Source: Myxococcales bacterium (lineage in GTDB: Bacteria; Myxococcota_A; Polyangia; Polyangiales; SLQV01). From it: a stretch of DNA of 61,128 bases. Under the pieces are notes generated by a model that had not been told where the DNA came from, ran no database searches, and worked only from the letters and a program-made list of their open reading frames with translations. Both the position numbers and the translations under genes were made by a program. Position 1 is the first letter of the stretch, and each line of letters begins with the position of its first letter. This document shows positions 14,837-45,148 of the stretch, piece after piece. The DNA is taken from NCBI GenBank assembly GCA_007131285.1, contig SLQV01000017.1, positions 1-61,128 of the forward strand. The letters are read 5' to 3'.

Positions 14837-15706
14837 ATGAACGCTTCAGAACGCCGGACCACGCCGACGTGGTGGGAATCACCCGGGCAGGTGCTCAAGG
14901 CTTACCAGCTCCAGGCTCAGAAGCGTTTTTCTCAAAACTTTCTGGCCGACTGGCGGGTCGTGTCAAAGATCGTGGATCGAGCCGCTGCGTTTCGCGCAAC
15001 CCACATCGTCGAAATCGGCCCCGGTCTCGGCATGCTCACCGCTGGCTTAGCGAGCCTAAACGTACCCTTGCTCGCCCTAGACATAGACTCGAGCCTTGAG
15101 CCCCGGCTGCGGGAACTCGAGACACGTTACGCAAACCTCTCGGTACGCTTCGCGGACGGCAGTGATTTTCCGTCGTGGCTTGCCTCCTGTAAAAATGCGC
15201 CTCTGGTGGTTTCCAATCTGCCCTATGCTCTGAGCGGGCGCTTTTTGAGGTCCACGCTCGATCACCACGCAAGTATTACTGGGGCGATCTATATGCTGCA
15301 ACGCGAGGTCGCGCTGCGCCTTATGGCAAGGCCCAGAACCCCCGAGTACGGCGCGTTGAGTGTGCTTGCGCAGAGCATGTTCCGCGTCAGCTCGGTGGCG
15401 ACAGCGCGGGCAAGTGCGTTTATTCCACCACCGAAGGTCGACAGCATGGTCGTTGCTCTCGTTCCGGCGCCTCAACTCGCAGCAAGCGACCTGCCGCAGC
15501 TAATAACCCTCGTGAAAACCGCTTTTGCGCAACGACGCAAAGTGCTGGTCTCGAATTTAAAGTCTTTGCTACCGCGGACGACCGTCAGTGACTGGCTTGC
15601 CACCGAAGGCTTCAGCGCCACTTGCCGGGCAGAGGAGCTAAGCCCGGAACATTTTCAGCGCCTGACACTTCTCTGCTGTGGTCATCGCCTCCCGCTTAGC
15701 CCCTGA
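14837..15706 (+). CDS. rsmA: 16S rRNA (adenine1518-N6/adenine1519-N6)-dimethyltransferase RsmA/KsgA
   Basis: KRFSQNFL, SAM-binding VEIGPGLGMLT and NLPY motifs. The internal ATG at 14837 is preferred to the track start at 14813. Confidence 0.9.
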   Translation: MNASERRTTPTWWESPGQVLKAYQLQAQKRFSQNFLADWRVVSKIVDRAAAFRATHIVEIGPGLGMLTAGLASLNVPLLALDIDSSLEPRLRELETRYANLSVRFADGSDFPSWLASCKNAPLVVSNLPYALSGRFLRSTLDHHASITGAIYMLQREVALRLMARPRTPEYGALSVLAQSMFRVSSVATARASAFIPPPKVDSMVVALVPAPQLAASDLPQLITLVKTAFAQRRKVLVSNLKSLLPRTTVSDWLATEGFSATCRAEELSPEHFQRLTLLCCGHRLPLSP

Positions 15707-15785
15707 CACGCCCAACTGGTATAGGTACTCAGACGCTATCGGCGCTGGAACGAGCTGTAGCAAATCTTATTCCTGATGATTAGGC

Positions 15786-17165: not shown

Positions 17166-17345
17166 ACTCATCGAGGACCCCGTGAAGCCCCTGGACCCGT
17201 AGGTGTAGCGGGGGCGGCCACCCGAGATGCCTGTTTGCGCCTGCCACCGGCGCTCCCCCGGCCCCACACGCGGCGCGCCCTTCCTCCGCCTCGCTCGGCA
17301 GCGACCGCTAACCCGCAGCGTGACGTTTGTAACCACCGCGTCAAT

Positions 17346-17717
17346 CTAGAGGGTTGCTTGTAGCACCGCCCTAATATCCGGAACCCGGTGCCGAGCCTTC
17401 CTGGACAAGGTGGAGCCTCGCGCGCGAACCATCAACCAATAACCTTCGCCAAGTTCAACGAAGGTTAGACACGCATGGCGACTCGAAAGGCAGACTTCCC
17501 GCAGCTTGCCGCGTAACGTGGCTGCGTGGGTGACGGCGAGCACCGCCGACACGGGTTGCGCTGCCCATACGAGCGCCTGGTCGACGACAACACGTGTGGC
17601 GTAGTCCACCCATTCCGCTTGGTCATCGACGAGCACGGCGGCATCGACACGCGGACATGCGCACATCAACGCTTCAAGCACATCCGTAAATGCAGTGCGA
17701 CGATGCTCTCGCTTCAT
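17346..17717 (-). CDS. Hypothetical protein, possibly Roadblock/LC7 (MglB-like) fold
   Basis: 123-aa ORF lying 51 nt downstream of a kinase gene on the same strand. Its residue spacing is reminiscent of Roadblock/LC7 (AAVLVDDQAEWVDYA ... CLTFVELGEGYWLMVRARGSTL). The fold assignment is an inference. Confidence 0.5.
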   Translation of the reverse strand: MKREHRRTAFTDVLEALMCACPRVDAAVLVDDQAEWVDYATRVVVDQALVWAAQPVSAVLAVTHAATLRGKLREVCLSSRHACLTFVELGEGYWLMVRARGSTLSRKARHRVPDIRAVLQATL

Positions 17718-17768
17718 TCACAGCTCACATGGCCGTCAAGGGCGTCAAACCACCCGGAATCGGGAACA

Positions 17769-18887
17769 TCAGCACACACGAAAAGCCAACACCGCCAAAA
17801 GTACAGCCAACCCAACAACCAAACCCAGACCCGTCAATACCGCCTTTCCGGGAATCGGCGGCGGCACGAAGGATACCTTAAGAGGCCCCTCTCCCAAGGA
17901 GCGAGAAGCATCAAAGGCAGCGGACGCCTCGCTCAGGTGCGGCAGCCTTTGACGAATCTCCGCTACACTGAGATTTTCGAGGGCCGAGTCCTGAAAGCTA
18001 GCCGGTTCAATTCCGAATGCCTGGGCAAACTCTTTTGCAAAATCCGTAGCTTTTGCGTAACGGCTGCTCTTTTCTTTCGCCAGGCCGCGTTGGAGCACGT
18101 TGTCCACTGCCGCCGTGATTCCGTTTGCGCCGCGCGCAAGTGGAGCCGGCTGCTCCTTAAGCACCTTCATCAGAATCTCGCCGATGGACTCTCCATCAAA
18201 TGCGACGCACCCGCTAAGCGCCTCGTAGGCAACTGCCGCGAGCGAAAAGACATCAGAGCGGCCATCAATATCCTGGCGACCGCGTGCCTGTTCTGGGGAC
18301 ATATATGCAGGCGATCCCAACGTTGTCCCGATCCCGGTAAGCTTGGGCCCGGTCTCGAGCTGCATCTTGACGGAACCAAAATCGAGCACACGAAGATCAT
18401 AATCCTCGCCCGCGGGACACAGAAAGATGTTCGCGGGCTTGAGGTCTCGATGAATTAGCCCTCGAGCGTGGGCAAAATCTAAAGCGGAAGCCACGCGCGC
18501 AACAATCTGAATGGTGGCGGCAAGACCAAGACGCCGACGCTGCGCCAACTCAATACTCAACTCGCGGCCGTAGAGACGTTCCATCACCAAGAACGGGACA
18601 CCCGTAGGCGTCGTGCCTCGTTCAAAGACCCGCACAATATAAGGGTGATTTAGACTTGCGGTGACCTCGAACTCACGGTCAAATCTCCGAGCATTGACCA
18701 AGTCCGCCGCCAGCGCACCGTGCATCACCTTGATGGCCACTGGCGGGGCTTCGGGGGCAGCGACTGAGCGAGCCTCGTACACGGTACCCGCAGCGCCCTC
18801 GCCGATGCGGGCGGTGAGATTAAAGCCAGCGAGCGTACTAAACGGCAGCGCTTTTAAATCGTTCACGAAAGCGCCCTCGGCCTGCAC
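17769..18887 (-). CDS. Hanks-type Ser/Thr protein kinase, C-terminal tail anchor
   Basis: GEGAAGTVYEA, VAIKVM, canonical HRDLKPANIFL, DFGSVK, AYMSPEQ. C-terminal TM LTGLGLVVGLAVLLAVLAF. Confidence 0.9.
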   Translation of the reverse strand: MQAEGAFVNDLKALPFSTLAGFNLTARIGEGAAGTVYEARSVAAPEAPPVAIKVMHGALAADLVNARRFDREFEVTASLNHPYIVRVFERGTTPTGVPFLVMERLYGRELSIELAQRRRLGLAATIQIVARVASALDFAHARGLIHRDLKPANIFLCPAGEDYDLRVLDFGSVKMQLETGPKLTGIGTTLGSPAYMSPEQARGRQDIDGRSDVFSLAAVAYEALSGCVAFDGESIGEILMKVLKEQPAPLARGANGITAAVDNVLQRGLAKEKSSRYAKATDFAKEFAQAFGIEPASFQDSALENLSVAEIRQRLPHLSEASAAFDASRSLGEGPLKVSFVPPPIPGKAVLTGLGLVVGLAVLLAVLAFRVC

Positions 18888-19245
18888 GTCAGAGATAGTT
18901 GACTTGCCCTGCCGGCTGCGACAGCGACGTCTCGAGCAGCAGACTGTGTCCTTTGGCCGGAGGGTTCATGCGATGTGTGATGCTTGGCGTAGAGCATAGG
19001 GTTGGGGGTGGTAGCCACTCCGAATCGATTTAAGAGCCAAACTAACCGAATATTCTCGCCCGATCCAGAGCACGCACTTCAGTCTCGCGCGAAATCTCAA
19101 TGTCGGACGGGAATGCGTGCGCTTTTCCGCAAAGCCGTTGCATGCCGCGTGATGCGCCATCTGCGGTCCGTGATGTCGGTCCTCGCTTAAGCAGAGACAC
19201 GCCTGAAGATGCATAAGCGCGCCTTGATGAACCGTAGCTCAAGGT

Positions 19246-21069
19246 CTAACCACCGCTCTTAACTGCTCGCGTGCTGATGGGAATCGCAAACTCCATCTCA
19301 CCGGTGTGCGGCGGAAAGCGCAACGCGTTAGCGACGCTCAGGAGGCACGCACCGAGCGGGGCGCTCTGTAATGTGGCCGGTGCGAGTGACACGGATTTCA
19401 CGACACCATCAGCGGAGACCTTGAAATTGAAAACGATGCGTTCTTGCGCCGTCGCGGCCTCCGTATTTTGATGCAAGCAACGCTCCATCTGACTCTTTTT
19501 TCCACGAAAGGTTCGCGTAATTAGTGCGGCGTGATCACTCGACTTCGGTGGCTTTGGGGCTTTCGTCGAGGGCTGTTTTGCAACCCTTCGGCTCTGCGCG
19601 ACGTGCGGCGTATGCGCCTTGTCCTCAAGCTTTTGGGAGGGGGGCGCGGAGGAAGTGTCGGGATCCTCAGCGTTTTCGTCGTCTGGTGAAACCGAAGCCT
19701 GCTTCGCCTCTTCGGCGGCGCTCTTCGCTACCTCTGCGGATTCGGAATCCGTCGAGCCTGTCACGACGTAGACAGACTGCGCTTTTCGCGCATTGGGTTG
19801 CGATACCAGCGCGAACGACAGCGCTGAAATGCCCACGAGCACAGTAGCGACCACGAGGCCCCACAAAACGTGGGTGCGCCTGGAGGTAGCGGCCTTTCCT
19901 GCCGCTACCTCGTTTACCTCCGCTACGCTAGAACGACTTAGCGCGGGCACATCATCGGAACTAACGGCTGGGACCTTCAGACGCCCCGAGGAAAACGAAT
20001 CGCTAGAGCTGCTTGGAGCATGCTCGGCCATTGCCGCGCCCTCCTCCCAGACTTCGACGGTGCCATCGCGCCAGGCTCGGTCGAGCACTTCCAGAGGCTC
20101 GATACGAAGCACTTCGGCCATATCGCTAAAAAAGTCGCGTTTGACCTGCGCACAGAGTGCCGCCTCAGCCGCGTTTTCCGTGAATCCCCTCACTTCGCGT
20201 AAGGCCTCGGCCATCGCGCCTGCGGACTCCCAACGGCCCGCAGGCGTCTTCGCGACGCTCTTACGAATGATCGCGTCGATCTCGGGTGAAACATCATCAC
20301 GGAGATCGGCGAGCGCACTAGGTGTTTTCGTAAATACTCGATGCAGCGTTTCCGCCATATCGCGACCACGAAACTCATTTTTGCCGCAGAGCAGTTCGTG
20401 CAGCACGAGCCCGCTCGCGTAAAGGTCGCTCTGGGCTGTCGGCCGCTGACCATTGAAGAGCTCCGGCGCGAGGTAGGGGAACTTGCCTTTAACGGTGGTG
20501 TCTTCCGTCTTGTACATCGCGGTTTCACCCATCACGCGCGCAATGCCAAAATCGACAAGCTTCACCTGCCCTTCCACATCGACCAGAATATTGGACGGTG
20601 AGATATCGCGATGAACAACGCAGAGCGACTTGCCATCAGGACGGCGCAATTGGTGCGCGTAATGCAGGGCATCGAGAACTCTAATGGTAATCTGAAGCGC
20701 ACTCGCGACAGGAAAGTGTCCATGTGCTTCCCGGACGTACTTGAGCCAGCGGCCCATGTGAAATCCGTGCACGTAGTCGAGCACCATGATGTAGGCGCCG
20801 TCCTCCTGAGCAAAATCCAGGACGCTGACGATGCCAGGATGCTTCAGATACGATAAAATCCTCGCTTCGCGCACGAACATCTGAGTCATTGCGTCATCGC
20901 CGGTTAAGTCCGGCAAGATGCGTTTCACGACGACCGGCCGCGCAAAACCGGCTGCGCCTTCTGCGCGCGCCAGATACAGCACACCCATGCCGCCGCGCGC
21001 TAGACGCTTTACGATGCGATAGCGACCAAGAACCTTGGTGCCAAGAAGTTCGTCTCGAACTGTGCTCAC
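19246..21069 (-). CDS. Hanks-type Ser/Thr protein kinase with TM segment and AgmX/PglI-like (TonB-C-like) C-terminal domain
   Basis: RGGMGVLYLA, VVKRI, HRDISPSNILV, DFGIAR, YLAPE. TM HVLWGLVVATVLVGISALSFALV. C-terminal ~85 aa (CLHQN..IVFNFKVSADGVVKSV..CLLSVANALRFPP). The GTG start overlaps the upstream stop (GTGA). Confidence 0.9.
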   Translation of the reverse strand: MSTVRDELLGTKVLGRYRIVKRLARGGMGVLYLARAEGAAGFARPVVVKRILPDLTGDDAMTQMFVREARILSYLKHPGIVSVLDFAQEDGAYIMVLDYVHGFHMGRWLKYVREAHGHFPVASALQITIRVLDALHYAHQLRRPDGKSLCVVHRDISPSNILVDVEGQVKLVDFGIARVMGETAMYKTEDTTVKGKFPYLAPELFNGQRPTAQSDLYASGLVLHELLCGKNEFRGRDMAETLHRVFTKTPSALADLRDDVSPEIDAIIRKSVAKTPAGRWESAGAMAEALREVRGFTENAAEAALCAQVKRDFFSDMAEVLRIEPLEVLDRAWRDGTVEVWEEGAAMAEHAPSSSSDSFSSGRLKVPAVSSDDVPALSRSSVAEVNEVAAGKAATSRRTHVLWGLVVATVLVGISALSFALVSQPNARKAQSVYVVTGSTDSESAEVAKSAAEEAKQASVSPDDENAEDPDTSSAPPSQKLEDKAHTPHVAQSRRVAKQPSTKAPKPPKSSDHAALITRTFRGKKSQMERCLHQNTEAATAQERIVFNFKVSADGVVKSVSLAPATLQSAPLGACLLSVANALRFPPHTGEMEFAIPISTRAVKSGG

Positions 21070-35288: not shown

Positions 35289-36116
35289 GTGTATTCTCAA
35301 ACTCGCGATGCGAGCCGACGGGTCACCGCAACCGACCTAGCGAAGCTCCGAGACAAGGGCGAGGCTATCATTGCCGTCTCACTCCATGACGCATGGATGG
35401 CAGAACTTTTTGACCGGGCAGGCGCACATATACTGCTCGTCGGCGACTCCCTTGGCATGCTCTTTCAGGGTCAGCCTGATACCGTCGGCGTGACGCTGGA
35501 GCACATTATTTATCACACGCGCGCAGTGCGGGCCGGCGCCTCGCGCGCGCACGTCGTTTCGGATCTCCCCTTCCTTTGGGCATCGCGCAACGAAGATGCT
35601 GCGCTCGAAGCACTCGGGCGGTTGATGCAAGAGGGAGGCGCTGACAGCGTGAAGCTTGAGGCAACCGAACGCCAGATACCACTGGTGACGCGGGCAGTTG
35701 AAGCTGGCATCCCCATCATGGCACACGTGGGCCTAAGACCTCAGACGGCGCGCACGCTTGGCGGCTATCCGCGTCAGGGGCGAGACGCGCAGAGCGCAGC
35801 CACCATTCGCGCCACGGCCCAAGCCCTTGCGCAGGCCGGGGCCTATGCGGTGCTCGTCGAAAACGTACCAGACCATCTCGGCAGCGAAATCACCCAGCAG
35901 CTCACTGTCCCAACCATCGGCATCGGCGCGGGCGTCGGCTGCAGCGGTCAGATTCTTGTGGCCCACGATATTCTGGGCCTTTCGGAACGGACTCCACCCT
36001 TCGCCCGACCTTTCGCTGAGCTGGGGATTCAAGCCGCCGCAGCCGCTCGAGCCTACGCCCAGGCCGTCTCAAGCGGCCAAGTAGGCGGTCGGCCTCCGTC
36101 GACGACACGCTCTTGA
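35289..36116 (+). CDS. panB: 3-methyl-2-oxobutanoate hydroxymethyltransferase PanB
   Basis: LLVGDSLGM, VSDLPF, VKLEA, HVGLRPQ, ENVP. GTG start. Confidence 0.92.
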   Translation: MYSQTRDASRRVTATDLAKLRDKGEAIIAVSLHDAWMAELFDRAGAHILLVGDSLGMLFQGQPDTVGVTLEHIIYHTRAVRAGASRAHVVSDLPFLWASRNEDAALEALGRLMQEGGADSVKLEATERQIPLVTRAVEAGIPIMAHVGLRPQTARTLGGYPRQGRDAQSAATIRATAQALAQAGAYAVLVENVPDHLGSEITQQLTVPTIGIGAGVGCSGQILVAHDILGLSERTPPFARPFAELGIQAAAAARAYAQAVSSGQVGGRPPSTTRS

Positions 36117-36277
36117 TGCGCTGACGCATTTACTTAAGCCTACTGGCATCAAGCGAGAGGAAATAGGAACGTCGCCCAAACGGAGCGCGTTCCCGGGTCG
36201 ACCGCCGGGCCAGATTTAAGCCCTTGCTTCATCACGTTGGCCGCCGATCGGTGCCCGCATTGGCGCAAAGAACGCGC

Positions 36278-37222
36278 CTAGACGAAGGTCGCCAGGTCTG
36301 GTCCTTGGCCCAGCGCTGCGTTGTCGATCAGACGTGCACCCGCCACCTTAGCTGCGATGAGGCAGCGCGCCTCTGCGCTGAGCACTTGGTCCTCCGGCCA
36401 GGGCTCCAAAGTCTCCGGGTCAACGATTGCGGCGTAATCGAGGCACTCAATCTTGCCATCCGCGGAACGCTCTCCAGACAAACTAGGAACCACGGACTGC
36501 ATCCCAAGCACTTCGCGCACTCGGCTCTGGATGATAGGCACCGAGCGTGTCCCATCAGCGAAGCTGGCACGCGCGGCAGCGAGGGCTTGTACGAGGCGAC
36601 GCGCCACCGGGCGCGTGCTCGGCTTTAGGTAGGCGTTGCGTGTCGAAAGTGCCACCCCGTCGGCGTCGCGCACGGTTTCTACGCCGAGCACACTGCAGCC
36701 AAGGGAGAGATCCTTCGCTAGGCGTTGGACCACGCGAAGTTGCTGAAAATCTTTTTCGCCGAAGGCAATGATGGCCGGCCGGATAAGGCCGAAAAGCCGT
36801 GCAAGGACCGTTAGCACCCCCTCGAAATGTCCGGGACGGCAGGCGCCTTCCCAACGTAATCCGAGTCTTCCGGGCAAAACGCGCGTCTCGAAGCCAGGTG
36901 GGTACAACGCATCCACACTGGGCACGAATACAAGCGATACACCCGCCGCCTCACAAAGCGCGAGGTCAGCGTCAAGCGACCGAGGGTAGCGTTGCCAATC
37001 TTCCCCGGGACTGAACTGCAGCGGATTGACGAAAATAGATACCGCGCGCGGCACTTCCGCCGATCTGAGCGCTTCAATACACGCCAAGTGACCCCGATGA
37101 AGCCCCCCCATTGTAGGGACAAGTCCTACGCTACCCAGCGTCTCAAGGGTCGCCTTCAGCGACCCAACATCCCGAAGCACCTGCACACACTTAGTGTGCA
37201 ACCGAAGACCGCCTGACGCCAT
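36278..37222 (-). CDS. panC: Pantoate--beta-alanine ligase PanC
   Basis: VPTMGGLHRGHL, SIFVNPLQF, YPR, FGEKDFQQ. Convergent with panB. Confidence 0.9.
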   Translation of the reverse strand: MASGGLRLHTKCVQVLRDVGSLKATLETLGSVGLVPTMGGLHRGHLACIEALRSAEVPRAVSIFVNPLQFSPGEDWQRYPRSLDADLALCEAAGVSLVFVPSVDALYPPGFETRVLPGRLGLRWEGACRPGHFEGVLTVLARLFGLIRPAIIAFGEKDFQQLRVVQRLAKDLSLGCSVLGVETVRDADGVALSTRNAYLKPSTRPVARRLVQALAAARASFADGTRSVPIIQSRVREVLGMQSVVPSLSGERSADGKIECLDYAAIVDPETLEPWPEDQVLSAEARCLIAAKVAGARLIDNAALGQGPDLATFV

Positions 37223-37259: not shown

Positions 37260-39488
37260 TCACTTCACTTTCGATCGCAAGTCGAAGCTCCAAAACCTAT
37301 CCTTCGCGCGCGCCTCTACTCGGCGATGCTCGATCGCTGAACCGAGACTCGGGTGGCGCACCTCCACTTCGACAATCGCATCAACTTCTAGGCCCGGAAT
37401 TTCCGCTGGAGCGGGGCCGTAGGGCACGCCGTTCACAAAGACAGCCGCACCCGCGGGCGACGACAGCACGGTCGCGGTGACACTCAGTGGCCTAAGCACG
37501 ACACGTAGCGGCGAGAGTTGTCCGGGCTCCACAAAAACACGCTCAGGCACGTAACCGTCTTTCACAAGCGTCACCTCGGCAAGACCGCCCTCGCCGCGTA
37601 CAACCTCAATACTGGCAGGCGTCTTGTCCTCATGGGCCACGCCGTTAACCTGAATATATGCGCCTGTTGGCTCAGATTCGATGCGAATCGTTGCTGAAGC
37701 AAGCCGGCCCCACACCACAACCGCGGCGACAAGCAACACAAGAACAATCCCAGCAGTCATACCGATCAGTGCGGCTGCACGAGAGTTTCCTGGGGGACGC
37801 ACGGGCAGTGTCGCCTGCGGCACTTGCTCTCGGGGGAGGTCGCGCGGCGAAGCGGGACGGAGAGGCGTGCGGTCAGAGGAAGGACCTTGTGCGCCGGCGG
37901 CGATATTGGCGTCAGTGTGGATCCGGCCACTCGACGGTTTAGTTCCGGGCGCGCGATCTTCGGCAGACCGTGCCACCGCGCGATCCTCAGCGCCAGCGTC
38001 CGCAGGACCACGTGTGGCATCGTGATCTTCTGGGTCTCGAATCAGGGGGTTGACCCCTGTGTTTTGGGATTTGTGACGGACGCGCAGCTGCCTAAGCGCT
38101 TCGCTAAAGCGATCGGGCTCTGCCGCGGGCTCCGCCTCTGAGGTCGCCTCGACATTCGCAACCGGAAGCAACGAAAGCACATTGGCCTTGGCGGGGACAC
38201 TCGACGGTGCCGCAAGACCCTCATTTATGAGTAAGGAGGTCGCAGAACGGCTTAAGCTTCCGGCACTCGCCAGCATGGCCTCGCGCACCGCTTGCCTTAC
38301 ATCAATATCAGGCTCGGAACGCTCCGAGTCGTGGGGAGAAGACGCGCTAACATGTGTGTCTGTGCCGAGAGGTCGTTCGGAGCGCAGCAGCGTTTTCCAG
38401 CGCGGCTTGCCCTTGTCGACAGACGCGGCAAGGGGAGGATCACTGCGCAGCAGCTTACGGACGTATTTGACAAGCTCCGACGGCGCAAAACCTGGCCAGC
38501 GTGCATGTAGGCAATCGAGGATCGCTTGCTCGAAACTGTTCGCGGAGGCGTAGCGTTTACTCGGATCTCGGCACAAGGCCCCCATCACCAATGCATCGAG
38601 GTCAGGATCCAGATCCGGCCGCCGGGTTGACGGTGGCGGAATATCTGCCGCCCGAACGGCAGTCAATAACAACGGAAAGTTGGGCTCGTTGTAAAGCAAA
38701 TCGCCGGTGAGCAACTCATAGAGCACCACGCCAGTTGAGAAAATATCAGTGCGCGCATCGACGGGGACTCCCTTCGACTGCTCCGGCGACATGTAGTGGT
38801 ACTTGCCTTTGATCACGCCGGCTTCGGTCTGCAGCGCGGAAACCGTCGCTTTTGCAATACCGAAATCCACAAGCTTAACTTCTCCCTCGCGACTGACCAC
38901 GATGTTCTGCGGTGAGATATCTCGGTGCACAATCGCCAGCGAGTTGCCGTCCTGGTCGCACTTTTTGTGGGCATAGTCCAATCCCGCACAGACTTGGGCG
39001 GCGATGAAAAGCGCCGACTCGACAGGAAGCGGTTGCTTGAGCTTGCGCGCCTTCAGGCCAAGGCGATGCAGGTCGGCGCCTTCGACGTACTCCATCACGA
39101 TGCAGTAGGTGCCGTCGATGCAACACAGGTCATACACCTGCGCGATACTCGCGTGGGTAAGGAGAACGAGCAGCTTCGCCTCGGCGACCAACGCATCAAT
39201 GAATGCGAGATCTTCAGCGTAGCGCGGGTGAATCATCTTGATCGCGACAAGCTTCTCGAAGCCCCCCACGCCGAGAGCCTTCGCGACATAGATCTCGGCC
39301 ATGCCGCCAGCAGCTAGGCGTCTAAGCAGCTCATAGGGCCCAAACCGCGCGGGCAAGTTTTGGCCTACTTCGACCACGTCACCGATCTTCTCGTTTCTCG
39401 TTGCACGAAACGCACGCCTTCCTGGAGAGGCACCTCTCGTCCCTCTGAGCGATGCTCGCAGAAATACAGATTTTTGTCGCGCTTTCAC
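37260..39488 (-). CDS. Hanks-type Ser/Thr protein kinase with TM segment and two extracytoplasmic PEGA domains
   Basis: AGGMAEIYVA, VAIKMI, HRDISPQNIVV, DFGIAK, YMSPEQ. TM LIGMTAGIVLVLLVAAVVVW. PEGA-like IRIESEPTGAYIQVNGV and VLSSPAGAAVFVNGVPYG. GTG start, uncertain. Confidence 0.9.
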   Translation of the reverse strand: MKARQKSVFLRASLRGTRGASPGRRAFRATRNEKIGDVVEVGQNLPARFGPYELLRRLAAGGMAEIYVAKALGVGGFEKLVAIKMIHPRYAEDLAFIDALVAEAKLLVLLTHASIAQVYDLCCIDGTYCIVMEYVEGADLHRLGLKARKLKQPLPVESALFIAAQVCAGLDYAHKKCDQDGNSLAIVHRDISPQNIVVSREGEVKLVDFGIAKATVSALQTEAGVIKGKYHYMSPEQSKGVPVDARTDIFSTGVVLYELLTGDLLYNEPNFPLLLTAVRAADIPPPSTRRPDLDPDLDALVMGALCRDPSKRYASANSFEQAILDCLHARWPGFAPSELVKYVRKLLRSDPPLAASVDKGKPRWKTLLRSERPLGTDTHVSASSPHDSERSEPDIDVRQAVREAMLASAGSLSRSATSLLINEGLAAPSSVPAKANVLSLLPVANVEATSEAEPAAEPDRFSEALRQLRVRHKSQNTGVNPLIRDPEDHDATRGPADAGAEDRAVARSAEDRAPGTKPSSGRIHTDANIAAGAQGPSSDRTPLRPASPRDLPREQVPQATLPVRPPGNSRAAALIGMTAGIVLVLLVAAVVVWGRLASATIRIESEPTGAYIQVNGVAHEDKTPASIEVVRGEGGLAEVTLVKDGYVPERVFVEPGQLSPLRVVLRPLSVTATVLSSPAGAAVFVNGVPYGPAPAEIPGLEVDAIVEVEVRHPSLGSAIEHRRVEARAKDRFWSFDLRSKVK

Positions 39489-40044
39489 GCAAGGCCAGGG
39501 CCGACTAGGTAGGTGCCAATCTTACCCGAAGACCCCAACCTTACATCCGACCCGAGGCATGGCTGCGCTCATTCGGCTGCGCCGCAGCGACCAGGCATTC
39601 GCTACTCACGAGACGGCGCACCACCACGCGTCGCGGCGGCGTTTAGACGTCCCCACCCGACCATCAGGCGACACTAGGATGTGCAACCCCTGAGTGTAGC
39701 ATATGCCTCGTTCAGATGGCCTTGCTTGCAAAGGCCCATGCTCGAATCGATCAAGCGAAGCCATTGCGGAGCCTGGCGCTTTTTGTCCCACTGATACCTA
39801 ACTTTGCTGGCAGGAGTGCTGTGCCGCAAACTTTCGCCAGACCGCTTCGCGGCAGGTAAGCGCGCGACAGAGTGTCAAACACACAAGCCAATCGCGGGCG
39901 GCGTATGACAGCGACGTCAATCCAAGGAGGCTTGAAGCCCCAGCACTTCACCTCCGAGACCAGCACATAGACCTCCGCGACAGCATACAGCTCCGGGTCG
40001 TCGCGGCGCGCACTGCTCCGACGAAGTCTCTGGCGAGATCTTGC

Positions 40045-40179
40045 CTAGCGTCGGCGACCGAGGGGGCGGCTCTGCATACCATTAACGCGGCGACGCTCTT
40101 TTGCCTTCAACTTAGCGCTATGGCGGGCGCACTTGGTACGCGAAGCGCGGCGGGACTTTTTGCTGATCGGAAGATACAT
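40045..40179 (-). CDS. Very basic 44-aa hypothetical protein (below ORF-track cutoff)
   Basis: Hand translation gives MYLPISKKSRRASRTKCARHSAKLKAKERRRVNGMQSRPLGRRR (18 of 44 residues are Arg/Lys, 1 acidic). GAGG lies 7 nt upstream of the ATG at 40179. It sits 44 nt downstream of tRNA-Phe on the same strand. Confidence 0.35.
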   Translation of the reverse strand: MYLPISKKSRRASRTKCARHSAKLKAKERRRVNGMQSRPLGRRR

Positions 40180-40223
40180 GGGAAAACCTCAAGCGCTGAA
40201 GGTCAGCGCGCCCGAACCCGGGG

Positions 40224-40296
40224 TGCCCAGAGACGGATTCGAACCGCCGACACGAGGATTTTCAATCCTCTGCTCTACCAACTGAGCTATCTGGGC
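40224..40296 (-). tRNA. tRNA-Phe (anticodon GAA)
   Basis: The reverse complement folds as a cloverleaf: GCCCAGA/TCTGGGC acceptor stem, GCTC-AGTTGGTA-GAGC D arm, GAGGA-TTGAAAA-TCCTC anticodon arm, GGTTCGAATCC T arm. CCA is not encoded. Confidence 0.95.
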
Positions 40297-40310
40297 CGCG
40301 GCGCGCTAGA

Positions 40311-41696
40311 ATGCCCGACGCTCCCTTTTTGTCAAGGACAGCCACAACCTCACCCGTGAACATCTTCTCCGACGCACTTCAACAGGAACTCGAGGCGCGC
40401 GAGTGCGGCATCGTCTCCGCGCGACGCAAGCAACGTTACGGCGTCACTATTCCGCCTATCTGGGCACGCGCCCATGGCGCCGACCTTCGTGACAGCGCGG
40501 GCCGTTCCTACCTCGATCTGACAAGCTCCTTCGGGGCCGCTCCCCTTGGCCAAAGCAATCTGCGCTGGCTGGGCGCGCTCCTATCACAGGGGCTCACCCT
40601 TTCCCACGGGCTTGGCGACCTCCATCCCAATGAAGCAAAGGTTCGTTTGCTCGGCGCACTCGGCAACCTTGCGCCCTGGCCCGATGCGCGGGTCATGCTG
40701 GGCCTTAACGGATCGGATGCCGTCGATGCGGCGCTCAAGACGGCATTGCTCGCCACTGCCAGACCGCATGTGGTCGCGTTTCGTGGTGGTTACCACGGAC
40801 TCATGCTTGGACCGCTCGCGGTATGTGGTTTGAGCGAGACGTTCCGGCAACCGTTCGCGGCAGCGCTGCGCCTGCGGGTTTCCTGGCTCGACTTCCCCAC
40901 CTCCACGGAGGCCGCCAAGCAAACCTTGAACGCGTTTGCAGTACTTCTTCAGCAAACGCAGCCGCCGGGGCTCCTGCTTTTCGAACCCATACTCGGGCGT
41001 GGAGGCGTCACGCGTGCCCCCGACGGGTTTCTTGCTCAACTAAGCGACCTTGCGCGCAAGCACGGCTGCCTGAGCGCGGCGGACGAAATTTTGACCGGCC
41101 TCGGTCGCACAGGCGTGTGCTGGGAGAGCACTGCCCAGGGAGCCCTGCCGGATATGATCTGTGCCGGCAAGGCTCTGGGGGCTGGTTTGCCAATCAGCGC
41201 ACTGCTCCTCAATCGCGAGAGCGCGCGCGCATGGTCCGGGCAGCAGGCGGCGTTCGGGGCCCTCCACACGGCAACCTACTTCGGCTCACCGCTTCTGTGT
41301 GCTGCCGCGCTTGCCTACTTGAAGGCTTTGGCGCGACCAGGTTTTCTACAGCAAGTACGCACGGCTGGCAACGATACGCTCGGGCGTTTACGTCGCGCGT
41401 TAAGCCCCCTCGGCGGCGGCGTCAAAGTGGTTGGACGCGGATTACTGATCGGGTTGGTTTTCGAAAGCGGCCCGGTTGCCTTGGCCGCGCTGGACAGGTT
41501 ACGGGACCGCGGCATTATAGCACTGCTAGCCGGCGCATCCGGCGAGGTCATTCAACTGCTACCGCCGCTAAATCTCGGTGCAAAAGCCTACGCACGCATG
41601 AGCACCGCAGTATCAGACGCCATCCTGGATTCTGCTAGCGGACGCCCACATCGGCCTGCAGCCCGGAGGCAGGAGGCCGAGAATGCGGCTGCCTGA
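40311..41696 (+). CDS. Class-III PLP-dependent aminotransferase (acetylornithine/GABA/omega-aminotransferase family)
   Basis: YLDLTSSFGAAPLG, NGSDAVDAALK, DEILTGLGRTG, candidate PLP Lys in ICAGKALGAGLPISA. Confidence 0.88.
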   Translation: MPDAPFLSRTATTSPVNIFSDALQQELEARECGIVSARRKQRYGVTIPPIWARAHGADLRDSAGRSYLDLTSSFGAAPLGQSNLRWLGALLSQGLTLSHGLGDLHPNEAKVRLLGALGNLAPWPDARVMLGLNGSDAVDAALKTALLATARPHVVAFRGGYHGLMLGPLAVCGLSETFRQPFAAALRLRVSWLDFPTSTEAAKQTLNAFAVLLQQTQPPGLLLFEPILGRGGVTRAPDGFLAQLSDLARKHGCLSAADEILTGLGRTGVCWESTAQGALPDMICAGKALGAGLPISALLLNRESARAWSGQQAAFGALHTATYFGSPLLCAAALAYLKALARPGFLQQVRTAGNDTLGRLRRALSPLGGGVKVVGRGLLIGLVFESGPVALAALDRLRDRGIIALLAGASGEVIQLLPPLNLGAKAYARMSTAVSDAILDSASGRPHRPAARRQEAENAAA

Positions 41697-42789
41697 ACCA
41701 CTACGCTCGCGGGTGCTCGGTGCGCTCCAAACGCAGGAAAACAAAGGGTATCCCTATTTTGACAGCCTTCTGGCGGAGCTGAAGTCTTGGCAATCCGGCC
41801 AAATCCCAGCGCTGGCGCGGCTGGCTGCCTACGGTCCTGAAATGCCGGCGCCCATCAGTCTTTTCCGAGACGGATGCCTCATTAGGCCCGCAGGCGGTCA
41901 AGGAACCAGTGCGCGAAGCCTGCGCTTCGAAAGCTCAGGCACCACAGCCGCGGAACGGGCAGTGCATGTGCTCGAGGAGGCAACGTTTTATGACACTGCC
42001 GCCTTGGCCTGGGGGCGCGCACACGTATTGAGCGGCGCGCTTCCCTCTACTTGGCTAGTGCTTGTTCCCGACCCTGCCGCGCTGCCACACTCTTCATTGG
42101 GTCACATGCTCGCAACCTTCCAGCGTGCTTCAGAACCCAAACGCGTGTGCTGGCTCGGCGTCGACCAAGCCGCCGTGGCTGCCAAGCACCTTGTCGAGCT
42201 AGCGAAAACGCGTCAGCCTGTGGCCATCTTTGCGACTGCCTTTGCTCTCGCAGACGCTCTCGACGCGCTACCACGAGAGATCGTACTCGCGCCCGACAGC
42301 CGCATCATGCAAACCGGTGGCTACAAGGGCCGTCGGCGCGCCTTAAGTTTCGGTGAACTGGCAGAGTGCGTGGACGCACGGCTTGGGCCGGTATCCTTGT
42401 GGTCCGAGTACGGCATGACCGAACTCGCATCACAGCTCTACGCACCCGATCCCCGCAGCGCGTCAACACGATTATCCGCTCAGAGCGATACGGACCAGGC
42501 ATGCTCCCCGACCTCCCCGGGGCGCGTGCTGTCTTTTGAGCCCCACTACGAGGCGCCTCCCTGGGTGCGCCTCACCATTCGCGACACGCGCACGCTAGCA
42601 GCACTGCCGCAGGGTCGAGAGGGGCTGATTCAGGTCGACGACCTAGCCAACGTTTACGGATGCGCCTCAATCCTAACGGAAGACATTGGCATGCTGACAG
42701 AAGAGGGAAAGCTTCTTCTCCGCGGCAGGGCTCCCCAAAGCCCCCTACGCGGCTGCTCGCTTGCATCCGAGCTAGACGAGACCCCATGA
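41683..42789 (+). CDS. LuxE-like acyl-protein synthetase (adenylate-forming)
   Basis: About 368 aa. FESSGTTAAE (SSGTTG-like P-loop), MQTGGYKGRRR, SEYGMTELASQLY. AGGAGG lies 8 nt upstream of the ATG. Overlaps the aminotransferase gene by 14 nt. Confidence 0.78.
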   Translation: MRLPEPLRSRVLGALQTQENKGYPYFDSLLAELKSWQSGQIPALARLAAYGPEMPAPISLFRDGCLIRPAGGQGTSARSLRFESSGTTAAERAVHVLEEATFYDTAALAWGRAHVLSGALPSTWLVLVPDPAALPHSSLGHMLATFQRASEPKRVCWLGVDQAAVAAKHLVELAKTRQPVAIFATAFALADALDALPREIVLAPDSRIMQTGGYKGRRRALSFGELAECVDARLGPVSLWSEYGMTELASQLYAPDPRSASTRLSAQSDTDQACSPTSPGRVLSFEPHYEAPPWVRLTIRDTRTLAALPQGREGLIQVDDLANVYGCASILTEDIGMLTEEGKLLLRGRAPQSPLRGCSLASELDETP

Positions 42790-43985
42790 GCGCACCTAGC
42801 AAACGTGTCACCCCTGGCGCACCCTTGGGCACGGAGGCGGAGACCAGACGCTCTAGACACGACGCCGCGACCACCCGAGAAGATCATCCCGCGCAATCGC
42901 AGCGCGCAGAAGCGACCGCCATCAAACCTCACGTCGCGCCCACTGCGCCCAGCAACGAGCGAGACGCCGCTGCGCTCATCAGCCGATTGGCCCTCTGCCC
43001 ACCGACGCGCATCGCAGCAGAGCACCGAATCTCGGTTGCTTTATTGCTGGGCGAGACGGTGCTCCAAGCTTACACGCCCATTCTGCTGGGTGCGTTGTCC
43101 GTCGCGTCGCGGTTGACTATCAAGGTACCAAGTCCCCCCGCATGCTCGAATCGAGACACTATCAGCACCAACTCCCGCATGCGCGGATTTGTTGAGGCTG
43201 CTGTCAACGCATACCAGCGCGGAACGCCGCCGGGTGAAAGGCCCAGCGTTCGTTGGCTGGAGCAGCGCCTCAATGCAGCCGAACTCGATGCCTTCTGTGC
43301 AGGGCACGCGTTGGTCTATGCCCAAGGAAACGAAGCGCTTATGCGCGCCCTACGACAGCGCCTCGACACTCGGCGCCTCATTGAGCGTGGTCCTGCCTAC
43401 GGCGCAGCGATCATCGACCTGCGTGGGGCCGATACCGCGGGAGCCTGCGCCACTCTCGCACGCGCGCTTGCAAAAGACTTCTTCGACTCAGGAGGACTAG
43501 GTTGCATGCACCCGCGGACCGCTGTGTGCATAGGAGAGCCCAAAACGTGCGCGAGCTTTATCGAAGAGCTGCGCGTCGTGCAGCCAGGCGCAGGCGCCGC
43601 ACCGCTATGCCGCTTTGCCCTAGAAGCCGCGGCTCGAGGGCGAATCTTTCCGTGGGGTGCCGGCACACTCGCGCACCTGCCGAGTCCCAACCGCCTGATC
43701 GTCGCCGAGCACAGTGAGGATCTTCCCATACACAGCGTAGCCTGTCCGCAGGAAGCAGCAGCGCTGCTCCTGCACGCGCCGAAGCGCATTCGAGCCATCG
43801 CGTCCGCGCCCTTCCCATTGGCTTCGATGCTTGTCCCCGCGATCAGCACGCACGGCAACGTGCGCATCGCTCCCTTGGGCACTCTGCAAGCAACCGTCCA
43901 CGACACCGCCGATGAGGGCTGGGATCCTCTATGCCTTTTTCGCACGCGTGCCGCGCTCTTAGGCACGCGCGCACAACCGATCTAA
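42786..43985 (+). CDS. LuxC-like acyl-CoA/acyl-protein reductase
   Basis: The internal ATG at 42786 forms an ATGA overlap with the luxE-like stop. LuxC-family-like blocks are present (ILLGALSVASRLTIKVPS; ERGPAYGAAIIDLRG; DFFDSGGLGCMHPRTAV with a candidate catalytic Cys). The N-terminal ~60 aa are low-complexity. Confidence 0.62.
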   Translation: MSAPSKRVTPGAPLGTEAETRRSRHDAATTREDHPAQSQRAEATAIKPHVAPTAPSNERDAAALISRLALCPPTRIAAEHRISVALLLGETVLQAYTPILLGALSVASRLTIKVPSPPACSNRDTISTNSRMRGFVEAAVNAYQRGTPPGERPSVRWLEQRLNAAELDAFCAGHALVYAQGNEALMRALRQRLDTRRLIERGPAYGAAIIDLRGADTAGACATLARALAKDFFDSGGLGCMHPRTAVCIGEPKTCASFIEELRVVQPGAGAAPLCRFALEAAARGRIFPWGAGTLAHLPSPNRLIVAEHSEDLPIHSVACPQEAAALLLHAPKRIRAIASAPFPLASMLVPAISTHGNVRIAPLGTLQATVHDTADEGWDPLCLFRTRAALLGTRAQPI

Positions 43986-44035: not shown

Positions 44036-45148
44036 CTACGGCAAGTTAAGCGCCGCTTCGCTCGGCGTACCCTTGGGTAACCTCGCGCCAGCGAGCTGGA
44101 CGAAAGGTGCGGGCACGCCCGAGGCATAGGGTTGCTCTTGCGCATAACGGGCGCGGTCAGACTCGTCATGGAGTAGCAGCACTGCGTTGACTTGAGCCAT
44201 CTCTTTCGCGAACACCGGATGCTGCGCTATGCCCAAAGCGAGTTCATTTGCCAGCGCGCTTCGCGGACCGGAGGGGCCGACCGCTTCGAGCAGGAAGTTG
44301 ACCGCAAAATCGAAGACGCTGAGGTAATCCGGGTAGCGACGCGCACCGGGCCTGAACGCGTAGCTGATGGGCACATCAAAGACGCGTCCCCCACCCCCGG
44401 GAAACTGGAGTCGCGTCGCGCGGAAAAAGAAGGCCTCGCAATGCTGGCCTTGAGCGAGCACACGTTCGGTCTCGGACGCACCCTCTTCCCCCGTTTCGGG
44501 ACGCTCCCTCCCCCGCTCTAAGCGTGTCTGCCAATAAACGGCAGACGCGCGGTAGGTCGGAATATAAGCCGACCCCCCCACCTCAACGAAAGAAGCAACG
44601 GCCCGTAGCTGCGGTGCAGCCCGCAACACAGACGCAACTGCCTGACGGTTTAGATCCTCCCAAAGGGGCACGCCGGCCGGGTTCGCCGCGGCCTTAGCCA
44701 CAAATGCGGCCAGTGCTGCATTGACGTCTCGACGGCCTCCGGCTGTCCGCGTCTCCCCGACCGCATCCTCCTTCTCCTCGTCGGGATCGGAGCGCTCACC
44801 GTCTAGATACGTCATGACGAAGGAAACCGGGCTCACCGTCCATTGCTGCTTCACGGCGACGGTAAATCGGGTTGTGCGAAAAGGCGGCTCAGCGGCAAGC
44901 AAGGTGCGCGCACTGGCGCAGAGTGGGGTAGGCTCGATATTCCCCGTCGGTGAACTGACAGCATGTATCGCTCCCCCGCGGCCCCCACAGGCCACCGCCC
45001 AAACCATCAGCACTAGCGCAGCAGGACCCGCGACATGCAGGGTTCGCACTTTTCCGCAACTAGGCACCGCACACCTGCGATCAGGCAGGGCCATGGTCAG
45101 CGCGCCGTTGCCGCAACCGATTGAAGTGCTCGCTGCGTACTGAGGCAT
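44036..45148 (-). CDS. Hypothetical lipoprotein
   Basis: Signal plus lipobox (AALVLMVWAVACGG). The start may be the internal Met at 45094. No motif recognised. Confidence 0.6.
   Translation of the reverse strand: MPQYAASTSIGCGNGALTMALPDRRCAVPSCGKVRTLHVAGPAALVLMVWAVACGGRGGAIHAVSSPTGNIEPTPLCASARTLLAAEPPFRTTRFTVAVKQQWTVSPVSFVMTYLDGERSDPDEEKEDAVGETRTAGGRRDVNAALAAFVAKAAANPAGVPLWEDLNRQAVASVLRAAPQLRAVASFVEVGGSAYIPTYRASAVYWQTRLERGRERPETGEEGASETERVLAQGQHCEAFFFRATRLQFPGGGGRVFDVPISYAFRPGARRYPDYLSVFDFAVNFLLEAVGPSGPRSALANELALGIAQHPVFAKEMAQVNAVLLLHDESDRARYAQEQPYASGVPAPFVQLAGARLPKGTPSEAALNLP

Follow-up and report, generated by a model that had tools for sequence, protein, structure and literature searches.

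Where luxE- and luxC-like genes lie beside an aminotransferase gene instead of luciferase genes, what would their products make? The question is raised by three neighbouring genes in a 61,128-nt contig of a Myxococcales bacterium (SLQV01000017.1; this whole stretch is called the window below). Our best explanation, which we consider probable when all of its parts are taken together, is that the aminotransferase (AT), LuxE-like and LuxC-like genes form one translationally coupled operon, whose products would act as a two-component LuxE/LuxC-type carboxylic acid reductase with a dedicated AT, converting an acid to an aldehyde and then to an amine at the expense of ATP and NADPH.

Organization of the gene cluster

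All three open reading frames lie on the plus strand (40311–41696, 41683–42789 and 42660/42786–43985; Table 1). The preliminary description had reported co-directional genes with a 14-nt overlap between the AT and LuxE-like genes, an AGGAGG before the LuxE-like ATG, and an ATGA shared by the LuxE-like and LuxC-like genes; direct reading of the sequence confirmed each of these junctions. The M-S-A start of the LuxC-like protein recurs in its closest homologue (P0002). The motifs quoted in the same description (DEILTGLGRTG, AGKALGAG, FESSGTTAAE, QTGGYKGRRR, EYGMTELASQ, ERGPAYGAAIIDL and GGLGCMHP) were likewise all present.

Upstream, the operon is bounded by a tRNA-Phe gene. The likely promoter of this tRNA gene, with a TTGACA on the minus strand (40335–40330), shares sequence with the 5′ end of the AT gene as annotated, and DNA identity to a related locus, L002, is ~98% over positions 40297–40342 (the initial 45 nt of the AT frame). 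Because this 5′ end is both nearly invariant and shared with the promoter of the divergent tRNA gene, translation of the AT more likely begins at the conserved GTG (40356) than at the first ATG (40311). Compared with the L002 orthologues (62–78% identical), each of the three genes shows purifying selection, with dN/dS values of 0.10, 0.20 and 0.22 for the AT, the LuxE-like protein and the core of the LuxC-like protein, at a dS near saturation. The ten flanking genes (29.9–51.6 kb, within ~10 kb of the cluster) include glnD, apbE, panB, panC, a Ser/Thr kinase, an MR/MLE enzyme and amylase-family genes. None resembles luxA, luxB or luxD, in agreement with the earlier statement that a luciferase partner and LuxD are missing here.

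Table 1. Positions of genes, signals and predicted functional residues in the window.
Feature	Position	Strand	Details
tRNA-Phe (GAA)	40222–40296	−	ARAGORN, Rfam; arrangement conserved in L002
Class-III PLP aminotransferase-family gene	40311–41696	+	461 aa from first ATG; 446 aa from GTG 40356
AT Arg230, unusual	40998–41000	+	EPILGRGG
AT Asp258	41082–41084	+	DEILTG
AT PLP-Lys287	41169–41171	+	ICAGKALGAG
AT Gln415	41553–41555	+	VIQLLPPL; Arg at same place in GabT-type enzymes
Shine-Dalgarno AGGAGG	41671–41676	+	inside AT 3′ end, 6 nt before LuxE-like ATG (41683); read directly
Predicted LuxE-family acyl-protein synthetase (adenylate-forming, self-acylating)	41683–42789	+	368 aa
LuxE-like P-loop SSGTT	begins 41932	+	
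LuxE-like Lys215	42325–42327	+	
LuxE-like Arg349	42727–42729	+	
LuxE-like C-terminal acyl-acceptor Cys358	42754–42756	+	RGCSL
ATGA stop/start overlap	42786–42789	+	LuxE-like stop, LuxC-like start; read directly; translational coupling
Predicted LuxC-family (ALDH-fold) acyl-thioester reductase, highly diverged, N-terminally reduced	42786–43985	+	399 aa
LuxC-like low-complexity N-terminal extension	42786–42959	+	~58 aa; pLDDT <50, alignment
LuxC-like Thr91	43056–43058	+	in place of AGNV Asn
LuxC-like catalytic Cys240	43503–43505	+	GGLGCMHP

The LuxE-like protein retains the LuxE active site

Searched alone, the LuxE-like protein matched PF04443 over its C-terminal 73 residues only and below the cutoff (20.2 vs. 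24.9 bits), so that its earlier assignment to LuxE fails the Pfam check on the single protein and stands on its family. There are 1055 homologues, and PF04443 is found in nearly all of the 120 best listed; those that bear it are 31–41% identical to the window protein. A profile built from 25 proteins of the family, that of the window among them, matched Photobacterium phosphoreum LuxE (7XC6_E) with E = 1.4e-33, pairing profile positions 25–358 with LuxE residues 34–369 and the RGCSL motif with KGCSL of LuxE. K215, R349 and C358 are invariant in the family alignment and correspond to LuxE K238, R355 and C364, the adenylation/thioesterification site of that enzyme (PMC9157457); C364 is the residue that is acylated, in the motif xKGCxLS. 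The LuxE-like protein is also close to LuxE in length (368 vs. 373 aa), and the two share the absence of the ANL C-terminal subdomain, the Lys/Arg pair and the acyl-Cys in an xGCSL motif.

The LuxC-like protein is diverged but keeps its catalytic cysteine

The LuxC-like protein had no Pfam match at E ≤ 0.01, including PF05893, and no PDB sequence match at E ≤ 10, and an exhaustive HMMER search with it found only three relatives. The assignment to LuxC proposed in the preliminary description, which the Pfam check on the single protein did not bear out, was instead upheld by profile and structure comparison. With hhalign, the protein aligned to neighbouring LuxC-family genes, 17 of whose 18 members match PF05893, with a probability of 98.5% (E = 3.3e-15), and the 18-member alignment matched P. 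phosphoreum LuxC (7XC6_A) at 4.1e-39. A structural model of moderate quality (pLDDT 65.5, TM 0.45) recovered the ALDH fold, with 7XC6_A as the top Foldseek match (1.9e-10). G181, G239 and C240 are invariant among 21 aligned sequences, and C240 in GGLGCMHP aligns with DQxGCLSP and YDQQACFS; the acyl-accepting Cys of LuxC is Cys286 in V. harveyi and Cys296 in P. phosphoreum. An ALDH fold with an acyl-Cys is thus common to LuxC and the LuxC-like protein.

The unusual low-complexity N-terminus noted earlier, then put at ~60 residues, is real. Residues 1–55 have pLDDT <50, are 30% identical to P0002 and evolve with a dN/dS of 0.39, and the extension is probably disordered, judging from the model. 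It has no counterpart in other LuxC-like proteins and replaces their conserved N-terminal helical segment.

Could the LuxC-like protein be, in this lineage, a degenerate, non-catalytic partner, leaving acyl-S-LuxE to be used otherwise, for example in acyl transfer, with no aldehyde formed in this organism? The lack of any Pfam match would fit such a role, as would the disordered tail where the cofactor-binding domain should begin, the change to Thr of the AGNV Asn that most LuxC proteins have, and a 14-aa insertion after the KVPS strand; with Thr91, the missing helical segment and no Pfam match, the protein could be catalytically impaired. However, the catalytic Cys and GxGC motif are retained, the core is constrained (dN/dS 0.22), the predicted fold is that of an ALDH with LuxC as its nearest structure, and the same Asn-to-Thr change occurs in LuxC-like proteins of Eremiobacterota and of locus L005, most of which pass PF05893. 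We regard loss of catalysis as unlikely.

The aminotransferase belongs to a distinct subfamily

The AT was correctly described as a class-III PLP enzyme, a family of fold type I: it matches PF00202 over residues 50–437 (6.9e-64, 216.4 bits vs. a cutoff of 30.5), its K287 motif aligns with the Lys-bearing A/G-K-G-I-A-G-G of GabT structures, and DEILTG aligns with DEVQTG. Both the Schiff-base Lys and the pyridine-N Asp motifs are kept across the subfamily of ATs linked to LuxE-LuxC. The top NCBIfam matches are all transaminases, acetylornithine transaminase having the lowest E-value and ArgD and LysJ being among the best, and yet the AT falls below every equivalog cutoff, including those for ArgD, GabT, BioA, HemL and EctB. 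ArgD comes closest, at 190 bits vs. 457, and all 25 listed families are far under. The Glu (EPiqGEGG) and Arg (vlRxxPPL) that form the gating and α-carboxylate-binding pair of GabT, OAT and AcOAT are not present in the AT. In the alignment with GabT, an Arg replaces the gating Glu (EPxxGRGG), and this GR is at least 90% conserved among linked ATs, none of which (0/50) has Arg at the second position. The linked ATs form a distinct subfamily that accompanies LuxE-LuxC, with 35–51% identity between phyla.

Because the best PDB matches include racemases (amino-acid amide racemase 6gio, 142 bits; alanine/serine racemase 9wqz, 139 bits; GabT, 136 bits), the AT is best called a putative transaminase. 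The enzyme might instead be a racemase or epimerase of the class-III fold, or a PLP enzyme of some other kind, with a substrate derived from an amino acid; the module would then make or process an amino aldehyde or amino alcohol instead of turning an aldehyde into an amine. The slightly higher scores of 6gio and 9wqz point that way, and 6gio, like the AT subfamily, has no α-carboxylate-binding Arg of the GabT/AcOAT kind. Against this, the differences in bit score are trivial, the NCBIfam matches favour transaminases, and the conserved Arg230 in the active-site loop could stand in for the missing Arg, whereas racemases have Asp there. Moreover, an aldehyde released by LuxC is a natural ω-transaminase substrate. 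A racemase is therefore unlikely in our judgement, and an AT is preferred.

Linkage of the three genes across phyla

The trio is conserved in many uncultured soil and sediment bacteria, and its carriers include the cultured Polyangium sp. 15x6. In a survey of 79 species-level loci, the order AT-E-C was found in 39 loci of Myxococcota (33 in which the AT directly precedes LuxE and 6 in which an insert lies between them) and the order E-C-AT in 8 loci of Eremiobacterota, with the AT directly downstream of LuxC; two further loci with other labels also carry the trio. Synteny thus extends far past close relatives, and since Myxococcota and Eremiobacterota differ in gene order, adjacency of the AT outlives rearrangement. 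AT genes in Eremiobacterota were found only where LuxC is present. LuxE-LuxC pairs occur without a nearby AT in Gemmatimonadota and most Verrucomicrobiota, so the aldehyde need not always be aminated.

These data bear on whether the AT is simply a housekeeping enzyme of the ArgD/GabT type that happens to adjoin LuxE-LuxC, as its acetylornithine transaminase match and the proximity of panB, panC, glnD and apbE might suggest. We find this very improbable: the ArgD score is less than half its cutoff, the active site has a signature of its own, the AT–LuxE start/stop overlap has been retained, and the genes stay linked in two gene orders, at least two phyla and at least 47 loci.

A predicted route from acid to amine

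In the route that we favour, the LuxE-like enzyme would adenylate a free carboxylate with ATP and move the acyl group onto its own Cys358, from where the flexible C-terminus would carry it to Cys240 in the LuxC-like reductase. Cleavage of this thioester by NAD(P)H would free an aldehyde, which the AT would turn into a primary amine with an amino-acid donor. The direction from acid to amine is suggested by the activation step, which consumes ATP. A reverse, catabolic or salvage route, an option raised in the preliminary description, would have the AT deaminate an amine to an aldehyde, the LuxC-like protein oxidize that aldehyde in the manner of an acylating aldehyde dehydrogenase, and the acyl product go to the LuxE-like protein. 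It would agree with the reversibility of class-III transamination and with the usual oxidation of aldehydes by ALDH-fold enzymes. Nevertheless, it seems highly doubtful: LuxE spends ATP in making an acyl-thioester (PMC6279958, PMC9157457), its adenylation/self-acylation triad is invariant in the LuxE-like family, and the reverse route would require synthesis of ATP from AMP and PPi, which is without precedent.

The preliminary description had proposed a fatty or other acid as substrate. The path from acid to amine is the best-supported mechanism, but nothing speaks specifically for a long-chain fatty acid. Residues P460–P488 of P. phosphoreum LuxC build a hydrophobic, L-shaped cleft of >40 Å for the myristoyl (C14) chain (PMC9157457). 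This C-terminal element is absent from the whole LuxC-like family, since the family alignment stops at chain index 447 of 477 in 7XC6_A, and the equivalents of Q402, F436 and H442, cleft residues essential in the P. phosphoreum enzyme, are not conserved. The data are as compatible with a smaller or polar acid as with a medium- or long-chain aliphatic one.

Comparison with known systems

In the lux system of P. phosphoreum (PDB 7XC6; PMC9157457, PMC6279958), adjacent genes encode the same two families, and the predicted path from acid through acyl-AMP, acyl-S-LuxE and acyl-S-LuxC to aldehyde is the lux route. The trio differs in having an AT as partner instead of luciferase, in its order (E-C, vs. 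C...E in the lux operon), and in its hosts, Myxococcota and Eremiobacterota rather than luminous Gammaproteobacteria. Sequence identity to the lux proteins is ~15–20%, and besides the cleft element missing from its family, the LuxC-like protein of the window lacks the N-terminal helical segment.

Carboxylate activation, reduction to a semialdehyde and class-III transamination also follow one another in ArgB/ArgC/ArgD and LysZ/LysY/LysJ. There, however, activation is by phosphorylation and reduction by a GAPDH-like enzyme, and the AT is set apart from ArgD and LysJ by the missed equivalog cutoffs and the swapped Glu/Arg signature. PigE and MxcG/MxcL are grouped with systems that combine acid activation, thioester reduction and transamination. 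No paper on a LuxE/LuxC/AT architecture was found in the literature searched, which agrees with the earlier view that no such pathway has been characterized; the logic of acid to aldehyde to amine is itself already known from TamA/TamH, TabE/TabA and CAR plus transaminase. TamA/TamH, of the tambjamine YP1 pathway, convert fatty acids to amines (PMC9594044), and, like CAR (A-PCP-R) with an ω-transaminase, they use ATP activation, thioester reduction and PLP transamination. These cascades activate the acid on an ANL-ACP/PCP carrier and use SDR-type thioester reductase domains, in many cases as fusions with the transaminase; these enzymes are unrelated to an ALDH-fold LuxC and a carrier-free, self-acylating LuxE.

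Finally, the LuxC-family reductase TabE and the stand-alone ω-transaminase TabA make dodecylamine for tambjamine BE-18591 in Streptomyces (bioRxiv 10.1101/2025.08.11.669332), a sequence of thioester reduction, there to a fatty aldehyde, and transamination to primary amine like that predicted for the trio. The substrates of TabE are acyl-ACP or acyl-CoA, and it works without ATP or a LuxE partner, whereas the trio has its LuxE-like protein; and TabE/TabA lie within a secondary-metabolite cluster with fatty-acid-synthase-like genes, whereas the trio is self-contained in housekeeping-type neighbourhoods.

Layout of the operon and the start of its first gene

The preliminary description had read this region as three co-directional, translationally coupled ORFs, encoding a class III PLP aminotransferase (AT, gene 1), a LuxE-like protein (gene 2) and a LuxC-like protein (gene 3). 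The ORF coordinates, the 14-nt overlap of the first two genes with a perfect AGGAGG ahead of the second ATG, the ATGA overlap of the last two and every motif quoted from the proteins were confirmed. With a tRNA-Phe gene immediately upstream and a convergent, lineage-specific gene downstream, the unit comprises exactly three genes. All three are under purifying selection relative to the orthologous trio of a related MAG (L002/L008, 'Myxococcales bacterium'), with dN/dS of 0.10 (AT), 0.20 (LuxE-like) and 0.22 (LuxC-like core) at a dS near saturation.

Over the first 45 nt of its ORF, the AT gene is ~98% identical in DNA sequence to L002, and the following 10 nt diverge. The conserved stretch carries a minus-strand TTGACA and, 16 nt beyond, a weak −10 element into which the ATG falls; it probably serves as promoter for the divergently oriented tRNA-Phe gene. 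A tRNA promoter at this position makes the conserved GTG a more likely start for the AT than the ATG. Public annotations of the relative L002 extend the AT too far, across the tRNA gene (505 and 539 aa). The ~730-nt stretch between the kinase gene and tRNA-Phe contains no long ORF and has no Rfam match at E ≤ 0.1. Rfam and promoter/terminator scans around the operon returned two tRNAs only and nothing above shuffled expectation.

Features of the trio and its flanks in the window
Feature	Position	Strand	Remark
panB, panC	35289-37222	+ (panB), - (panC)	3-5 kb upstream of the trio
Ser/Thr kinase with PEGA domain	37260-39488		between panB/panC and the trio
Intergenic stretch	39489-40221		kinase gene to tRNA-Phe
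tRNA-Phe	40222-40296	-	abuts AT ORF
Conserved 5′ region of AT ORF	40297-40356		probable tRNA-Phe promoter
TTGACA	40335-40330	-	within the conserved 5′ region
AT ORF	40311-41696	+	ATG at 40311; likelier start GTG 40356
AT R230	40998-41000		Arg at gating-Glu position of GabT, OAT, AcOAT
AT Q415	41553-41555		Gln at conserved carboxylate-binding Arg position
AGGAGG	41671-41676		6 nt before LuxE-like ATG
LuxE-like ORF	41683-42789	+
ATGA overlap	42786-42789		LuxE-like/LuxC-like
LuxC-like ORF	42786-43985	+
Convergent gene	44036-45148		no family match, lineage-specific

Genes 2 and 3 are related to LuxE and LuxC

Scanned directly against Pfam and NCBIfam, the products of genes 2 and 3 gave sub-threshold or empty results. 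We do not count this against the LuxE and LuxC assignments of the preliminary description, because profile comparisons recover both families. By itself, the LuxE-like protein aligns solely with the final 73 residues of the Pfam LuxE model (20.2 bits vs. a threshold of 24.9). Nearly all of the best 120 of its 1055 homologues, however, match PF04443, and a 25-sequence profile that includes gene 2 aligns over its full length with Photobacterium phosphoreum LuxE (chain 7xc6_E of the LuxC-LuxE structure 7XC6; E = 1.4e-33). The C-terminal subdomain typical of adenylate-forming enzymes is missing from LuxE (PMC9157457; PMC6279958), and cryo-EM defines its active site as Lys238 and Arg355 together with the acylated Cys364, with a conserved C-terminal TRxxKGCxLS motif (PMC9157457). 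K215, R349 and C358 of the LuxE-like protein align with these three residues and are invariant in the family, C358 lying in RGCSL, 11 residues before the end of the 368-aa protein.

The LuxC-like protein is far more isolated. It has no Pfam match; a word-indexed search gave only two hits, yielding one homologue, HMMER run exhaustively over 1.84 billion representatives gave three matches only, and a PDB sequence search gave none. The link to LuxC was built instead through the genes found next after LuxE homologues elsewhere. Of 18 such genes, 17 match PF05893 (LuxC), and a profile of the 18 proteins finds the LuxC of 7XC6 (4.1e-39). Comparison of the window protein with these proteins by hhalign gave a probability of 98.5% (E = 3.3e-15, 290 columns), pairing GGLGCMHP with DQxGCLSP and YDQQACFS, and in a 21-sequence alignment just three residues other than Met are invariant, C240 among them. 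For a moderately good AlphaFold model (pLDDT 65.5, from a shallow alignment), LuxC (7xc6_A) ranks first in the PDB (E = 1.9e-10), ahead of hundreds of aldehyde dehydrogenases. Taken together, the hhalign link, the invariant C240 and the model match indicate that the third gene is a very diverged LuxC-family reductase. It is peculiar in having a disordered tail of ~58 aa where other LuxC-like proteins have a conserved N-terminal helical segment, a 14-aa insertion, and Thr for the Asn of the AGNV motif, a substitution also present in the Eremiobacterota and L005 homologues.

The linked aminotransferases form their own subfamily

Gene 1 encodes an unambiguous class III PLP enzyme (PF00202, 6.9e-64) that misses all NCBIfam equivalog cutoffs (e.g. 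ArgD, 190 bits vs. a cutoff of 457). Its best PDB relatives score only ~136-142 bits, and both racemases and GabTs are among them. LuxEC-linked ATs across phyla are 35-51% identical to the window AT and clearly nearer to it than any characterized enzyme is. The AT is not an ArgD-type housekeeping equivalog; it belongs to a subfamily of its own that travels with LuxE-LuxC.

Two active-site positions set this subfamily apart. At least 90% of its members carry EPxxGRGG, with Arg in place of the Glu in GabT EPiqGEGG, and at the Arg position of vlRxxPPL none of 50 subfamily ATs has Arg (Gln, Ser, Thr, Val or Cys instead). The signature looks like a swapped Glu/Arg charge pair and may represent a relocated carboxylate-binding Arg. 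It also keeps alive a minority possibility, that the AT is not a simple transaminase. We retain the transaminase reading below; the signature offers a defined handle for structure-function work on the AT.

The trio is conserved in two gene orders

A one-genome-per-species scan gave at least 587 stretches with a match to the LuxE-like family, the best 80 of which were analyzed by iterative profile searches on their ORFs. The trio is syntenic in other genomes in two orders, a Myxococcota type and an Eremiobacterota type. Because the adjacency outlasts this change of gene order between phyla, and because the AT subfamily is dedicated to it, the comparison argues strongly that the trio is a functional unit.

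Gene arrangements among the analyzed LuxE-like loci
Group	Arrangement	Loci
Myxococcota-type	AT directly before LuxE-LuxC, overlaps of 1-4 nt frequent	33
Myxococcota-type	AT 0.5-3 kb upstream, another gene in between	6
Myxococcota-type	truncated at contig ends	3
Myxococcota-type	AT not found, only ~1.1 kb of upstream sequence	1
Eremiobacterota	LuxE-LuxC-AT, AT overlaps LuxC or directly adjoins it	8
Eremiobacterota	lone LuxE paralogue, neither LuxC nor AT	7
Gemmatimonadota	LuxE-LuxC pair lacking AT within ~5 kb	11
Verrucomicrobiota	no AT within flanks examined; 3 of 5 are LuxE-MFS-LuxC	5
Verrucomicrobiota	AT upstream with inserted gene	1
Omnitrophota	AT upstream with inserted gene	1
Other labels	AT directly upstream	2
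Acidobacteriota (Thermoanaerobaculia)	cut by contig end	1

Predicted chemistry and substrate

LuxE uses ATP and ends as an acyl-thioester on its own C-terminal Cys, from which the acyl group passes to a Cys of LuxC and is released as aldehyde with NADPH (PMC6279958; PMC9157457). Because the residues needed for these steps are all conserved, reduction of a carboxylic acid to an aldehyde is the best-supported prediction for genes 2 and 3, and the ATP-consuming LuxE step would fix that direction. Since aldehydes are the standard substrates of class III ω-transaminases, the tightly coupled AT would most simply act next and yield a primary amine. We favor this acid-aldehyde-amine mechanism with moderate confidence.

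The route of the preliminary description, from a fatty (or other) acid, stands in its order of steps, the best-supported reading; for 'fatty' in particular the evidence is mixed, and we do not adopt it. Against a long acyl chain, the LuxC-like family stops ~30 residues short of the P. phosphoreum LuxC C-terminus and so has no counterpart of P460-P488, the element closing the >40 Å hydrophobic cleft; the cleft-essential Q402, F436 and H442 are not conserved; and the top matches of a Verrucomicrobiota MFS gene are organic-acid/anion families (generic, sub-threshold). A lipid-type substrate is favored by a lipase/palmitoyl-thioesterase-like hydrolase between AT and LuxE at five Myxococcota loci, and by an N-acyl-amino-acid-deacylase-like amidohydrolase adjoining LuxE in Longimicrobiales.

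The closest family-level relative of the trio is the LuxC-LuxE fatty acid reductase. As the preliminary description had it, neither luciferase nor LuxD is found among the flanking genes, so the trio is not a lux operon. Among the systems nearest to it in function are ArgB/C/D and LysZ/Y/J of primary metabolism and, in general, pairs of CAR or thioester-reductase with a transaminase. So are the tambjamine enzymes TabE (LuxC-family) and TabA (ω-transaminase), which make dodecylamine for tambjamine BE-18591 (bioRxiv 10.1101/2025.08.11.669332), and TamA/TamH (PMC9594044). Judged by these analogues, the chemistry itself is of a known kind.

Flagellin-glycosylation islands contain luxE and luxC (PMC7874193). 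The LuxE/LuxC/AT combination is not described in the literature searched, in keeping with the earlier claim that no characterized pathway has this architecture; its breadth in Myxococcota and Eremiobacterota and the AT subtype likewise appear undescribed there. To our knowledge, LuxE/LuxC pairs outside bioluminescence have essentially no assigned function, which contrasts with the abundance of the LuxE-like family in our scan. The trio would be a new natural acid-to-amine solution that dispenses with carrier protein, CoA or an NRPS/PKS scaffold, and a candidate producer of some amine metabolite or lipid in the poorly studied Polyangia and Eremiobacterota. It would also be a compact biocatalytic cassette, primary amines, fatty ones included, being industrial targets.

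A more specific proposal strikes us as unlikely: that the trio is a previously unrecognized, vertically conserved pathway by which Polyangia-type Myxococcota and Eremiobacterota make a primary amine in their normal physiology, with carrier-free LuxE/LuxC acting on a non-fatty substrate and a new AT subtype with a relocated carboxylate-binding Arg. Candidate products would then be a polyamine or diamine, an ω-amino acid such as β-alanine from a dicarboxylate, or an alkylamine lipid building block. β-Alanine is included because panB and panC lie nearby in the window lineage. This arrangement is common to the closest relatives only, and the β-alanine idea drawn from these neighbors was rejected for that limited linkage. 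PanD had no match in the window or the relative loci searched, and a 61-kb window says little on this point.

Lineage-specific neighbors

Neighborhoods outside the trio are lineage-specific. All four candidates for a conserved fourth gene proved lineage-restricted, and none occurs in the window. A Metallophos gene lies near the trio on the convergent strand at 13 loci, and a CoA_binding_2 protein is encoded near it at seven Eremiobacterota loci.

Directly upstream of the AT, 10 Polyangiales-type loci (L011, L020, L030, L032, L037, L040, L045, L065, L072 and L086; e.g. L032 3073-4485) encode a 470-aa protein, absent from the window, whose two ends each form a small fold and whose long middle is Pro/Ser-rich and disordered. 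It matches neither Pfam nor NCBIfam. A tRNA-Phe lies just upstream of its gene in L011 and L065, the two among these 10 loci that were scanned for tRNAs. The α/β hydrolase between AT and LuxE (L015, 4784-5896; L027, L036, L043 and L087; DUF676/Palm_thioest, sub-threshold) is likewise absent from the window; it is possibly a LuxD-like, acyl-releasing partner.

The MFS transporter gene between LuxE and LuxC in Verrucomicrobiota (L031, L078 and L080) has only generic matches, all far sub-threshold, with drug-efflux families alongside those at the top; the lysophospholipid (LplT) model is not among the matches listed. These matches are too weak to name a substrate. In the Longimicrobiales loci L012 and L014, the amidohydrolase (Amidohydro_3, N-acyl-D-amino-acid-deacylase-like) is directly upstream and extends over the start of LuxE; downstream are ABC/ABC-2 transporter genes.

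Six Eremiobacterota loci (L018, L019, L049, L050, L055 and L067) hold a second LuxE-like type with neither LuxC nor AT nearby, whose conserved neighbors include a Cys/Met-metabolism PLP enzyme, aconitase and RF-2-like genes. This second type is possibly a LuxE paralogue whose acyl acceptor differs. Finally, ~3.5 kb downstream of the trio in the close relative L001, past the MR/MLE gene, five co-directional genes (14441-20750) encode three proteins of ~395 aa and one of 652 aa, all without a Pfam match, and then a Lant_dehydr_C protein. This run looks RiPP-like; at its position the window has tRNA-Arg and amylase-family genes instead.
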